Assembly (NCBI GenBank): GCA_964016885.1
Contig: OZ024740.1
Location: forward strand, 121,334,001-121,398,000
Source of the DNA: Eledone cirrhosa
Taxonomy: Eukaryota
Direction of reading: 5' to 3'
Length of the DNA: 64,000 nt
The notes beneath the pieces are model-generated. The model was not told where the DNA came from. It worked only from the letters and a program-made list of their open reading frames with translations, and did no database searches. Made by a program: the position numbers and the translations under genes. Below are positions 9,391-33,200 of the stretch, one piece after another (the first letter of the stretch is position 1; each line of letters opens with the position of its first letter).

Positions 9391-9951
9391 ATGAATTTTT
9401 TAAATATAAGGAACTTGTTCTTTCTTTTTATTTCATTGTTTTTATTAATTTATATATATATATATATATATAAATGGAAAAAATGAAATTTCATTTCTCA
9501 CTCTTATTACGGCTGATACTTAAATATAAGTATGTATACGTACATACATATATGTATACAGATGTACAGTAGTATGTTTATTCATACATACATGCACACA
9601 CATGTATATATATATATATATATATGTACGTACGGGCTAACCGATACGTACACATATATATGTGTGCATATATGTATACATATACATACTACTGTACATC
9701 TATATACATATATGTATGTACGTATACATACATACTCGCAATTAAGTACCAATAAACTCGGTACATCTACATATGTATACGTGTGTGTATTAATATGCAT
9801 ACTAGTATTTCAGTATACATATGTGGATGTACATTTTTAACTTAATCGTTTAAGCGTCAGTCATACAAAAGTGAGTTACAAACGAAACGAAATTTAATTT
9901 CGTTTCGTTATTTGTTTTTATCGTCTCCGTTGAACCGGTACGTACTTACGC

Positions 9952-9990
9952 TCTATGCAAATTAGTCTGCCCACTACTAATTTTCATAGA
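9952..9990 (+). promoter_or_regulatory. Octamer-containing inverted repeat in monomer A (repeats every 466 bp)
   Basis: tctATGCAAATtagt-ctgcccact-actaATTTTCATaga contains a perfect ATGCAAAT facing an inverted ATGAAAAT. The same element is conserved in array B. Function is inferred only. Confidence 0.5.
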
Positions 9991-10047
9991 AAAAGCATAT
10001 AACGATATGTGCTTTTACGATTCTCTAGAGAGGCCGGAAGATAGGTA

Positions 10048-27247: not shown

Positions 27248-30200
27248 CCGGTGTCAGTGTTGAACAAAAAGGTGACGTGGTTGCCTTAACACAGTATGGC
27301 ATAAATTCAGGCTGTTCAGTTTGTTTACAAACGAACAAAGCGACGTTATAATAAGCGCCGCTAAACTGATACGTGCATATATGTATGTGTACCTGTATGC
27401 ATATGTATGTATATATGTATATATATATATATATGTGCATGCTACTGTACGTCTGTATACATATATGTATGTACGTATACATGCATACTTACATTTAAGT
27501 AAGTGCCATACTAAGAGTGAGAAATGAAATTTCGTTTTCATTTTGTTTCAATTTATCGTTTTCGGTATGCCTGACCGATTTAACTCACTCAATATGCAAA
27601 TTAGGCTGCTCAGCCGTTAATTTTCATAAGGAAAGTATATACTTTCGAACGTTCAACTATCTGGCAGATGGGTAAACGGTGCTGATGATAGCTAACAAGC
27701 TTGAAACTAGTACATCGTTCCTGTGTCAGTGTTGAACAAAAAGGTGACGTGGTTGCCTTAACACCGTATGGCATAAATTCAGGCTGTTCAGTTTGTTTAC
27801 AAACGAACAAAGCGACGTTATAATAAGCGCCGCTAAACTGATACGTGCATATATGTATGTGTACCTGTATGCATATGTATGTATATATGTATATATATAT
27901 ATATATGTGCATGCTACTGTACGTCTGTATACATATATGTATGTACGTATACATGCATACTTACATTTAAGTAAGTGCCATACTAAGAGTGAGAAATGAA
28001 ATTTCGTTTTCATTTTGTTTCAATTTATCGTTTTCGGTATGCCTGACCGATTTAACTCACTCAATATGCAAATTAGGCTGCTCAGCCGTTAATTTTCATA
28101 AGGAAAGTATATACTTTCGAACGTTCAACTATCTGGCAGATGGGTAAACGGTGCTGATGATAGCTAACAAGCTTGAAACTAGTACATCGTTCCTGTGTCA
28201 GTGTTGAACAAAAAGGTGACGTGGTTGCCTTAACACCGTATGGCATAAATTCAGGCTGTTCAGTTTGTTTACAAACGAACAAAGCGACGTTATAATAAGC
28301 GCCGCTAAACTGATACGTGCATATATGTATGTGTACCTGTATGCATATGTATGTATATATGTATATATATATATATATGTGCATGCTACTGTACGTCTGT
28401 ATACATATATGTATGTACGTATACATGCATACTTACATTTAAGTAAGTGCCATACTAAGAGTGAGAAATGAAATTTCGTTTTCATTTTGTTTCAATTTAT
28501 CGTTTTCGGTATGCCTGACCGATTTAACTCACTCAATATGCAAATTAGGCTGCTCAGCCGTTAATTTTCATAAGGAAAGTATATACTTTCGAACGTTCAA
28601 CTATCTGGCAGATGGGTAAACGGTGCTGATGATAGCTAACAAGCTTGAAACTAGTACATCGTTCCTGTGTCAGTGTTGAACAAAAAGGTGACGTGGTTGC
28701 CTTAACACCGTATGGCATAAATTCAGGCTGTTCAGTTTGTTTACAAACGAACAAAGCGACGTTATAATAAGCGCCGCTAAACTGATACGTGCATATATGT
28801 ATGTGTACCTGTATGCATATGTATGTATATATGTATATATATATATATATGTGCATGCTACTGTACGTCTGTATACATATATGTATGTACGTATACATGC
28901 ATACTTACATTTAAGTAAGTGCCATACTAAGAGTGAGAAATGAAATTTCGTTTTCATTTTGTTTCAATTTATCGTTTTCGGTATGCCTGACCGATTTAAC
29001 TCACTCAATATGCAAATTAGGCTGCTCAGCCGTTAATTTTCATAAGGAAAGTATATACTTTCGAACGTTCAACTATCTGGCAGATGGGTAAACGGTGCTG
29101 ATGATAGCTAACAAGCTTGAAACTAGTACATCGTTCCTGTGTCAGTGTTGAACAAAAAGGTGACGTGGTTGCCTTAACACCGTATGGCATAAATTCAGGC
29201 TGTTCAGTTTGTTTACAAACGAACAAAGCGACGTTATAATAAGCGCCGCTAAACTGATACGTGCATATATGTATGTGTACCTGTATGCATATGTATGTAT
29301 ATATGTATATATATATATATATGTGCATGCTACTGTACGTCTGTATACATATATGTATGTACGTATACATGCATACTTACATTTAAGTAAGTGCCATACT
29401 AAGAGTGAGAAATGAAATTTCGTTTTCATTTTGTTTCAATTTATCGTTTTCGGTATGCCTGACCGATTTAACTCACTCAATATGCAAATTAGGCTGCTCA
29501 GCCGTTAATTTTCATAAGGAAAGTATATACTTTCGAACGTTCAACTATCTGGCAGATGGGTAAACGGTGCTGATGATAGCTAACAAGCTTGAAACTAGTA
29601 CATCGTTCCTGTGTCAGTGTTGAACAAAAAGGTGACGTGGTTGCCTTAACACCGTATGGCATAAATTCAGGCTGTTCAGTTTGTTTACAAACGAACAAAG
29701 CGACGTTATAATAAGCGCCGCTAAACTGATACGTGCATATATGTATGTGTACCTGTATGCATATGTATGTATATATGTATATATATATATATATGTGCAT
29801 GCTACTGTACGTCTGTATACATATATGTATGTACGTATACATGCATACTTACATTTAAGTAAGTGCCATACTAAGAGTGAGAAATGAAATTTCGTTTTCA
29901 TTTTGTTTCAATTTATCGTTTTCGGTATGCCTGACCGATTTAACTCACTCAATATGCAAATTAGGCTGCTCAGCCGTTAATTTTCATAAGGAAAGTATAT
30001 ACTTTCGAACGTTCAACTATCTGGCAGATGGGTAAACGGTGCTGATGATAGCTAACAAGCTTGAAACTAGTACATCGTTCCTGTGTCAGTGTTGAACAAA
30101 AAGGTGACGTGGTTGCCTTAACACCGTATGGCATAAATTCAGGCTGTTCAGTTTGTTTACAAACGAACAAAGCGACGTTATAATAAGCGCCGCTAAACTG

Positions 30201-33200
30201 ATACGTGCATATATGTATGTGTACCTGTATGCATATGTATGTATATATGTATATATATATATATATGTGCATGCTACTGTACGTCTGTATACATATATGT
30301 ATGTACGTATACATGCATACTTACATTTAAGTAAGTGCCATACTAAGAGTGAGAAATGAAATTTCGTTTTCATTTTGTTTCAATTTATCGTTTTCGGTAT
30401 GCCTGACCGATTTAACTCACTCAATATGCAAATTAGGCTGCTCAGCCGTTAATTTTCATAAGGAAAGTATATACTTTCGAACGTTCAACTATCTGGCAGA
30501 TGGGTAAACGGTGCTGATGATAGCTAACAAGCTTGAAACTAGTACATCGTTCCTGTGTCAGTGTTGAACAAAAAGGTGACGTGGTTGCCTTAACACCGTA
30601 TGGCATAAATTCAGGCTGTTCAGTTTGTTTACAAACGAACAAAGCGACGTTATAATAAGCGCCGCTAAACTGATACGTGCATATATGTATGTGTACCTGT
30701 ATGCATATGTATGTATATATGTATATATATATATATATGTGCATGCTACTGTACGTCTGTATACATATATGTATGTACGTATACATGCATACTTACATTT
30801 AAGTAAGTGCCATACTAAGAGTGAGAAATGAAATTTCGTTTTCATTTTGTTTCAATTTATCGTTTTCGGTATGCCTGACCGATTTAACTCACTCAATATG
30901 CAAATTAGGCTGCTCAGCCGTTAATTTTCATAAGGAAAGTATATACTTTCGAACGTTCAACTATCTGGCAGATGGGTAAACGGTGCTGATGATAGCTAAC
31001 AAGCTTGAAACTAGTACATCGTTCCTGTGTCAGTGTTGAACAAAAAGGTGACGTGGTTGCCTTAACACCGTATGGCATAAATTCAGGCTGTTCAGTTTGT
31101 TTACAAACGAACAAAGCGACGTTATAATAAGCGCCGCTAAACTGATACGTGCATATATGTATGTGTACCTGTATGCATATGTATGTATATATGTATATAT
31201 ATATATATATATGCATGCTACTGTACGTCTGTATACATATATGTATGTACGTATACATGCATACTTACATTTAAGTAAGTGCCATACTAAGAGTGAGAAA
31301 TGAAATTTCGTTTTCATTTTGTTTCAATTTATCGTTTTCGGTATGCCTGACCGATTTAACTCACTCAATATGCAAATTAGGCTGCTCAGCCGTTAATTTT
31401 CATAAGGAAAGTATATACTTTCGAACGTTCAACTATCTGGCAGATGGGTAAACGGTGCTGATGATAGCTAACAAGCTTGAAACTAGTACATCGTTCCTGT
31501 GTCAGTGTTGAACAAAAAGGTGACGTGGTTGCCTTAACACCGTATGGCATAAATTCAGGCTGTTCAGTTTGTTTACAAACGAACAAAGCGACGTTATAAT
31601 AAGCGCCGCTAAACTGATACGTGCATATATGTATGTGTACCTGTATGCATATGTATGTATATATGTATATATATATATATATGTGCATGCTACTGTACGT
31701 CTGTATACATATATGTATGTACGTATACATGCATACTTACATTTAAGTAAGTGCCATACTAAGAGTGAGAAATGAAATTTCGTTTTCATTTTGTTTCAAT
31801 TTATCGTTTTCGGTATGCCTGACCGATTTAACTCACTCAATATGCAAATTAGGCTGCTCAGCCGTTAATTTTCATAAGGAAAGTATATACTTTCGAACGT
31901 TCAACTATCTGGCAGATGGGTAAACGGTGCTGATGATAGCTAACAAGCTTGAAACTAGTACATCGTTCCTGTGTCAGTGTTGAACAAAAAGGTGACGTGG
32001 TTGCCTTAACACCGTATGGCATAAATTCAGGCTGTTCAGTTTGTTTACAAACGAACAAAGCGACGTTATAATAAGCGCCGCTAAACTGATACGTGCATAT
32101 ATGTATGTGTACCTGTATGCATATGTATGTATATATGTATATATATATATATATGTGCATGCTACTGTACGTCTGTATACATATATGTATGTACGTATAC
32201 ATGCATACTTACACTTAAGTAAGTGCCATACTAAGAGTGAGAAATGAAATTTCGTTTTCATTTTGTTTCAATTTATCGTTTTCGGTATGCCTGACCGATT
32301 TAACTCACTCAATATGCAAATTAGGCTGCTCAGCCGTTAATTTTCATAAGGAAAGTATATACTTTCGAACGTTCAACTATCTGGCAGATGGGTAAACGGT
32401 GCTGATGATAGCTAACAAGCTTGAAACTAGTACATCGTTCCTGTGTCAGTGTTGAACAAAAAGGTGACGTGGTTGCCTTAACACCGTATGGCATAAATTC
32501 AGGCTGTTCAGTTTGTTTACAAACGAACAAAGCGACGTTATAATAAGCGCCGCTAAACTGATACGTGCATATATGTATGTGTACCTGTATGCATATGTAT
32601 GTATATATGTATATATATATATATATGTGCATGCTACTGTACGTCTGTATACATATATGTATGTACGTATACATGCATACTTACATTTAAGTAAGTGCCA
32701 TACTAAGAGTGAGAAATGAAATTTCGTTTTCATTTTGTTTCAATATATATATATATATATATATATATAAATGAAATTAGAGTAATCTGATAAGATGAGC
32801 TAATGTACATGCTTTGAAAATATGTCATAGTACAACGAAGCAGATTCGTTGTTATGAGTTCTAATCGGCGCTGTAGTCGGAAAAAAATCACAACTGTTCA
32901 AAGGAAAAGTGCCGATTGGTTGATTAGAACAATGAAACTATATTTCGACAGCGTGAAGTAAAGAAATTATATTGTTTTTGATTCCATTGCCGTTACCATC
33001 TTCCAGCCGAAATTTCTGGCAGGCGTTCCAAGCTCTTTTCGGTGATAGGGGCCGGGATATGAACTCTGAACGTACAGAGACAGAACAGATATCGCAACAC
33101 TTATCGTCCAATATTTTATTACTTCTGCCAATTCCCTGCCCACTGACTAATACTTTATTGATGCAAATTTTCAAACATTAAGATTTAAATTTAGAGCACA

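Follow-up and report, generated by a model that had tools for sequence, protein, structure and literature searches.

Insertion ends of hammerhead retrozyme arrays in Eledone cirrhosa point to copying by a Penelope-like enzyme

RESULTS

Two homologous hammerhead arrays

The stretch of Eledone cirrhosa DNA analysed here (GenBank assembly GCA_964016885.1, contig OZ024740.1, positions 121,334,001 to 121,398,000; 64,000 nucleotides, hereafter the window) carries two tandem arrays, A and B, each unit of which contains one hammerhead ribozyme on the + strand (Table 1). The arrays fit the known class of animal non-LTR (long terminal repeat) retrozymes, and the anatomy of their insertion ends suggests a Penelope-type route of mobilization.

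Tandem Repeats Finder gave a period of 466 bp with 13.2 copies for array A and of 472 bp with 11.9 copies for array B, with 99% matches in both, and a core scan of the window found 13 and 12 + strand hammerhead cores spaced exactly 466 and 472 bp. These scans bear out the initial annotation of the window, which had described two homologous hammerhead arrays with these unit lengths and had placed the predicted post-cleavage 5′ ends (10086 and 27241) correctly. In a global alignment of the A and B monomers, 300/497 columns (60%) were identical; the score of 364.5 is far above the best of 200 shuffles (205.5), thus the monomers are homologous, and the common order of motifs noted earlier is visible in this alignment. 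The GC content of the arrays is 0.36, low as in metazoan non-LTR retrozymes, and no stop-to-stop frame of at least 120 amino acids was found within them, except one beginning in the TA run to the left of B.

Array B is a complete insertion, composed of a (TA)n run, a short inverted arm of 240 bp, a long arm of 12 units, and a second (TA)n run. The inverted arm and the (TA)n junctions were absent from the initial annotation. The 5′ boundary of array A lies at about 9734-9754.

Fixed insertion ends and inverted arms

We evaluated the insertion ends in two sets of loci. The first includes the window and 18 loci picked from the first 100 hammerhead-motif matches, with several single-motif loci skipped; two of its arms are fragments similar to a third family, C, described below. 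In this set, 38/39 arms of at least 40 nt ended at one of two sites, nearly always fused to TA. The “short” end falls at +228-234 from the predicted cut in A and at +249-261 in B, and the “long” end at +301-302 in A and at +311-316 in B. The two sites are homologous between A and B (TTTA/AG and TTTAT/CG, the slash marking the end) and lie 60-70 nt apart.

The full set consists of 59 loci, 40 of which were picked by a junction, so that one arm there is pre-selected; of its 111 rows, 8 were dropped (shorter than 40 nt or at an edge), leaving 103 arms. Among the family-A arms, 83/87 ended at +225-233 or +299-302, and 96/103 of all arms ran into TA repeats. The 5′ ends of the arms were scattered, and no poly(A) was seen at the retrozyme junctions. 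The two arms of one insertion were mutually nearest in sequence at 14/21 loci and tied at 2, one of the 21 being mis-paired across two insertions. Family C has the same layout at one locus (L099).

Genome-wide, family A junctions with (TA)n numbered 1,061 for the short end and 2,334 for the long end, while the respective controls gave 1 and 0. Along the first 117 Mb of contig 1, 41/54 short ends were accompanied, at no more than 20 kb, by an outward-facing long end on the other strand; same-strand or inward long-end partners were 0, and the chance expectation was 0.034 per end. An insertion usually consists of two arms placed head to head, each bearing a different one of the two ends. Inverted arms were also present at part of the unpaired ends: 6/13 unpaired short ends have one with a variant long end, and 16 of the 27 unpaired long ends fetched (58 in total) have one ending at +228/229.

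Arrays are up to 31 units long. The cut site is crossed at least once by 82/103 arms and at least twice by 32/103. Since most arms read through the cut site, the template is likely circular or uncut multimeric RNA, and a linear cleaved monomer is excluded as the usual template. Seven arms scored at +1 had made stops at the cut site, and with them a linear-monomer template, a candidate, which was rejected: the five arms inspected begin about 3-24 nt upstream, and none of the five stops exactly at the cut site.

Ribozyme and monomer fold

The hammerhead of both arrays is type I, with a bulged stem I (GG-UAA), and a 6-nt loop 2 (UAACAA in the first A hammerhead, whose core is CUGAUGA); the description of it as “minimal” therefore did not stand. 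Helix III is very short, with 1 or 2 pairs around a palindrome (A-CUAG-U). As cleavage triplet, A carries GUU and B carries GUA, and another A subfamily has GUC; in family B, U.U replaces G-C at the base of stem II, and stem II/loop 2 is altered in 2/13 units of array A. The Rfam search that had been proposed returned 0 families at gathering score in the window, and the best sub-threshold match, searched for in 9700-10800 only, was HH9 (33.1 bits against a cut-off of 52, E 3e-6).

The stem I changes between A and B reported earlier (T-A to C-G, A-T to G-C, and T-A to G-T) were confirmed. In a hand-picked set of seven representatives covering three families, only position 7 and the cut residue vary within the catalytic core, and the 14 hammerhead pairs are 95.9% paired, against at most 44% in slid controls; 6/14 pairs change on both sides, a result reached in 4 of 500 shuffles. 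The cut-to-cut monomers fold with z values of −8.9 (A) and −8.1 (B), with 0/100 shuffles each as stable. A and B share the order of their helices: a long end-to-end helix, a hairpin, a closed domain, a tail hairpin, and three hairpins, the domain being closed by a long-range helix and enclosing four hairpins. Across nine monomers, 31/96 predicted pairs, including the long-range helix, show two-sided changes. The sequences compared are related, with few independent events, so the compensation supports structural selection on the hammerhead and the monomer and is not a formal test of it. Coherently, the earlier proposal of a structurally selected retrozyme family holds, given the compensatory pairs at both levels and the similar folds.

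The axolotl motif with a helix III of this kind cleaves well only as a dimer (PMC7229834; this source, PMC8557442, PMC11167929, and bioRxiv 10.64898/2026.07.22.740005 are cited for the parts available). Hammerhead activity is plausible here, not assured. Among the sequencing runs, no RNA holder of the repeat was listed. Contigs from four of the six runs, whose kind is unrecorded, were also inspected: run X1 behaves as DNA, since its contigs extend over the unique flank; X5 and X6 hold repeat only, as RNA and shallow DNA alike would give.

Three dispersed families

Exact motif matching on the AT-rich genome of 2,996 Mb, with all control patterns at 0, gave 17,599 matches to the A/B hammerhead pattern and 8,620 to a 25-letter B motif. 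A variant hammerhead pattern added 8,830 matches, mostly belonging to family C, with a unit of about 422 bp. In total, three related families account for at least 26,400 exact hammerhead motifs scattered across the genome; A and B are therefore two of thousands of dispersed insertions and, contrary to what had been suggested, are not two local subfamilies: they belong to families, at least three in number, that extend genome-wide. When further families were sought with a pattern having a purine as the first base of stem I, the 16 matches obtained were all A, B, or C variants. Units diverge by 0.15-0.7% within arrays (at least 4 units) versus 0.4-11.6% between loci.

In one family B subfamily (L040, L041, L047, and L081), the units vary from 456 to 538 bp through expansion of an internal TA run inside the long rod hairpin, the remainder of the unit being kept. 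Runs X4 and X6, from two other organisms, hold 72% and 60% of the sampled monomer B words; related species may therefore carry an almost identical family B. A metagenome scan gave 2 matches; in the one inspected, stem I does not pair, and the sequence resembles coding DNA that matches by chance.

Resident Penelope-like elements

Between arrays A and B lies a 5′-truncated Hydra-type Penelope-like element (PLE), a member of the candidate helper class, with an inverted arm (20398-20774 versus 24701-25077) and two different ends on (TA)n. Its hammerhead, near 24870-25010, has a palindromic helix III and was missed by short-spacing descriptor scans because stem II is extended to about 110 nt. Young PLEs of the Hydra type abound in this genome: 150/150 scored matches of this family have 97-100% identity, with open frames up to 866 amino acids. 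An intact copy with an 828-amino-acid frame shows the Hydra-clade marks RWR (an RWK-like motif), DKT, and CxCx5C (read against section 11 of PMC8557442); the elements also have a C-terminal GIY-YIG, (TA)n insertion, and a hammerhead. Of 7,999 candidates scored, 267 are homologous to the protein at E ≤1e-20, the closest named one being from Argonauta (41%). A second young PLE family is present in the genome.

A direct junction between a PLE and a retrozyme was found in one fetched locus (L055:3438-4850, G000:C1:26.7 Mb), where a Hydra-type PLE fragment, broken inside the endonuclease domain, is followed, without a change of orientation, by an arm of family B; none was seen in 40 further loci. 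The PLE at this junction belongs to a fourth family, whose terminus, inspected by eye, looks unrelated to the retrozymes.

Other features of the window

The inverted pair 26105-26270/26428-26593, with a hammerhead-like motif at 26188 (−) and 26510 (+), recurs at L076, L078, and L079 and is probably the terminus of a further PLE family. The flanks beyond the (TA)n runs around B (26590-26702 and 32770-32884) are inverted copies of each other, as if array B had been inserted at the centre of an earlier palindrome. Several inverted repeats of considerable length (the longest 858 nt at 100%) lie near TA runs at 3459-4573, 16361-17770, 36459-38031, and 38463-40222; they are probably further head-to-head PLE-type insertions. 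The window also contains a GC-rich, broken reverse transcriptase (RT) element similar to long interspersed nuclear elements (LINEs) at 44792-47830 (RVT_1), an RT fragment at 18754-19152, and, at 6444-8119, a broken transposon-like frame that is rich in cysteine and matches nothing in Pfam.

Table 1. Coordinates of the retrozyme and PLE features in the window
Feature	Position	Strand	Remarks
Third, family-C-like retrozyme, head-to-head fragments	9464..9735	.	Matches a family C copy at 84-88%; its long end lies on (TA)n; immediately to the left of A
Array A	9754..15910	+	13.2 units; long arm, “short” fixed end (+233 from cut) fused to (TA)n
First type I hammerhead of A	10044..10094	+	Recurs every 466 bp; predicted cut before 10086
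“Tail” of A	10319..10387	+	Unit +234..+302, between the two fixed ends; AU-rich hairpin and U-rich stretch
(TA)n-rich target run, 3′ end of array A	15909..16009	.	
Family-C-like long-end fragment	15998..16128	-	Shares the (TA)n run with the end of array A
Hydra-type PLE, 5′-truncated	20263..25077	+	RT-GIY-YIG frames 20739-22395, CxCx5C linker; candidate helper class
Inverted B arm, 240 bp	26876..27115	-	Unit +10..+249, short-end type; (TA)n adjoins the left side
Array B	27114..32748	+	11.9 units; “long” fixed end (+316) fused to (TA)n at 32743-32769
First hammerhead of B	27199..27249	+	Recurs every 472 bp; predicted cut before 27241
Terminal “tail” of B	32690..32748	+	+258..+316
Second Hydra-type PLE insertion, head to head	57830-60890		Own minimal hammerheads: 57955 (−), 60822 (+); bounded on both sides by (TA)n

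DISCUSSION

Proposed mechanism

The insertions show the marks of a non-autonomous, PLE-dependent element: two fixed ends, a tail on one arm, an inverted 5′-truncated arm, and an AT-rich target. This suggests that the element borrows a Penelope enzyme to spread, and we consider it likely, on the basis of these ends, that the non-coding hammerhead retrozymes are copied into (TA)n by a Penelope-like RT-endonuclease, probably of the Hydra clade. The purified Poseidon protein of the anole cleaves and extends both strands of AT-rich DNA, and its reverse transcription starts at two internal sites, which enclose the “tail” of genomic copies (PMC11167929). In a typical PLE insertion, a 5′-truncated copy lies inverted and only one end carries a tail; families of the Hydra clade use (TA)n as their target (PMC8557442).

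Under this mechanism, the array would be transcribed and its short-helix-III hammerheads would cut, probably as dimers; monomers may then be ligated to circles of about 470 nt, aided by the long helix that pairs the monomer ends. The PLE protein would bind near the tail and nick both strands of a (TA)n run, and two complementary DNAs (cDNAs) would be primed at the internal sites (for A, +233 and +302; for B, +257 and +316). Synthesis of each cDNA would proceed back across one unit or many, with a circle or an uncut multimer as template, and the two truncated products would be fused head to head. Duplication or conversion at the DNA level probably also reshaped long arrays afterwards.

Several observations weigh against this mechanism. 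By exact pattern, long ends outnumber short ends about 2:1; one outward pair is short-short (C1:141.07 Mb); and no inverted family-A partner of array A was seen in the window. The retrozyme tails measure 60-70 nt, versus 30-40 bp for published PLE tails. Concerning the enzyme, Pfam and PDB gave neither an RT nor a GIY-YIG match for the 828-amino-acid protein, so its class rests on motifs. The terminal regions of three resident PLE families resemble A and B in AT-dinucleotide runs only, and a short motif that by eye had seemed common to PLE termini and A/B did not hold up; the partner is therefore known only by class. The L055 junction could be a template-switch chimera, but it could also be a deletion. 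In the published work, 8/9 Xenopus retrozyme dimers remained uncleaved in vitro (bioRxiv 10.64898/2026.07.22.740005), and a PLE hammerhead was dispensable for insertion in vitro (PMC11167929). Finally, in three long A arrays variants recur in non-adjacent units, which rules out strict rolling circle on a single monomer as their sole origin; such sharing would fit the copying of mixed multimers or later DNA-level duplication.

Alternative explanations

The compensation and the strand-polar fixed ends led to the rejection of plain satellite DNA free of RNA selection. A more specific satellite model starts from a PLE terminal repeat (pLTR) left alone by a truncated insertion and expanded by unequal crossover, the retrozyme RNA not being a template; it was put forward for vertebrate retrozymes (bioRxiv 10.64898/2026.07.22.740005, discussion). 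Such an origin would likewise yield PLE-type ends, and the quasi-periodic shared variants in the long A arrays point to duplication at the DNA level. However, the unit-to-unit junction is already present in most arms, even below 1 kb and on both arms, and junctions in such short arms require a tandem or circular template at insertion. No arm in the 59 loci extends upstream into an open reading frame (ORF), except for the one junction inside the endonuclease domain, and no resident PLE tested terminates in this sequence. We regard the solo-pLTR origin as very unlikely.

The enzyme itself could be another one, such as a LINE or a PLE outside the Hydra clade (Neptune or Naiad) that also favours microsatellites, a bias common to several PLE clades (PMC8557442). 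The missing sequence link to the Hydra-type families tested leaves room for it, as do the other RT fragments in the window. The absence of poly(A) at the junctions argues against this option, as does the tail with its two internal starts, a combination reported to be exclusive to PLEs (PMC11167929). Furthermore, Hydra-type copies in the same genome have the same two-ended, inverted, (TA)n-bound layout. A different mobilizing enzyme is thus improbable, although less so than the solo-pLTR origin.

The closest contest regards the template. The same PLE helper could always copy an uncut linear multimer, with the hammerhead freeing the RNA from read-through transcripts or cutting rarely and circles arising as by-products. 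The quasi-periodic shared variants fit the copying of a mixed parent array. The very short helix III, the GUU triplet in A, and the U.U in stem II of B suggest that cleavage may be slow, and uncleaved RNA was the main in vitro substrate of the anole PLE (PMC11167929). Conversely, array B is nearly uniform, with only single-unit variants (4 over 11 full units), as expected from a monomer circle; conservation of the core and stems, with compensation, extends across three families; every unit of arrays up to 31 long would need to escape cleavage; and circles are abundant for the coral, mussel, and axolotl retrozymes (PMC7229834). We give the exclusively multimeric template somewhat less than an even chance, and the involvement of a circular template remains evenly balanced. 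The fullest form of the Penelope mechanism, in which a Hydra-clade enzyme recognises circular ribozyme RNAs by their fold rather than by sequence shared with the helper, and copies them into (TA)n by double-primed rolling-circle reverse transcription with up to about 30 units per event, is possible and should be taken as tentative, slightly more so than the multimer alternative.

Significance

Which enzyme mobilizes animal retrozymes, and whether circular RNA is the template, has been the subject of proposals rather than of demonstration (PMC7229834; bioRxiv 10.64898/2026.07.22.740005, in the parts available). The insertion ends described here name an enzyme class and give two base-precise predicted priming sites kept between families that are 60% alike. 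With good probability, the insertion signature ties these retrozymes to Penelope-type target-primed reverse transcription. The ends also give large-scale genomic support for the two-site, both-strand priming by PLEs shown in vitro for one anole element (PMC11167929), and the young resident candidate helpers with intact frames, together with the mapped sites, make a defined in vitro reconstitution possible. If the tentative circular form were true, thousands of insertions would record the long-proposed, undemonstrated circle-to-genome step of animal retrozymes, with both its priming sites mapped to the base.

Comparison with known systems

The retrozyme class has already been published for molluscs and other animals (PMC7229834), and a link with PLEs has already been proposed (PMC7229834; bioRxiv 10.64898/2026.07.22.740005). 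Among cephalopods, the giant squid genome paper lists 235 Rfam hammerhead matches without analysis, and the Octopus vulgaris repeat annotation does not mention ribozymes; a literature search, with most subscription papers outside its reach, found no description of cephalopod retrozymes or of tail-type retrozyme ends.

The metazoan non-LTR retrozymes of coral, mussel, and axolotl (Cervera and de la Pena 2020, PMC7229834) share with the arrays non-coding tandem units with a type I hammerhead each, GC below 45%, thousands of motifs per genome, and a strongly self-paired monomer. The short palindromic helix III resembles that of HHR_Amex1, and the U.U at the base of stem II in B that of HHR_Amex2, while the units, at 466-472 bp, exceed by a little the quoted range of 150-450 bp. 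Target-site duplications are mentioned in that report; fixed double ends, inverted arms, and (TA)n targeting are not described in its available parts. Expression and circles are proven for those retrozymes, whereas the ones described here are known from sequence alone. The plant LTR retrozymes differ: they have two LTRs, a type III hammerhead, a primer binding site and polypurine tract, and a 4-bp target-site duplication, in place of the type I hammerhead, tandem units, and (TA)n flanks found here.

Vertebrate retrozymes have been interpreted as PLE derivatives (Li, Clavereau, Pollet, bioRxiv 10.64898/2026.07.22.740005), with the same co-occurrence with PLEs and the same proposed use of PLE machinery as here. 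The evidence there is co-distribution and pLTR homology in Xenopus, no mollusc being named among the groups sampled in the available parts; here the evidence is the anatomy of the insertion ends, and, unlike for the Xenopus retrozymes, no pLTR homologue was found. The Chlamys elements, such as MRC1 (PMC8557442), are likewise non-autonomous PLE dependents with multicopy head-to-tail insertions, but they are algal, are generally 3′-similar to an autonomous partner (a similarity not found here), and mostly lack hammerheads. The insertion layout is matched by Poseidon of Anolis (PMC11167929) and the Hydra clade (PMC8557442), with the same two-ended tail, inverted 5′-truncated arm, tandem copies, AT-rich or (TA)n targets, and hammerhead; unlike those PLEs, the retrozymes described here have no ORF and reach up to 31 tandem units per arm.

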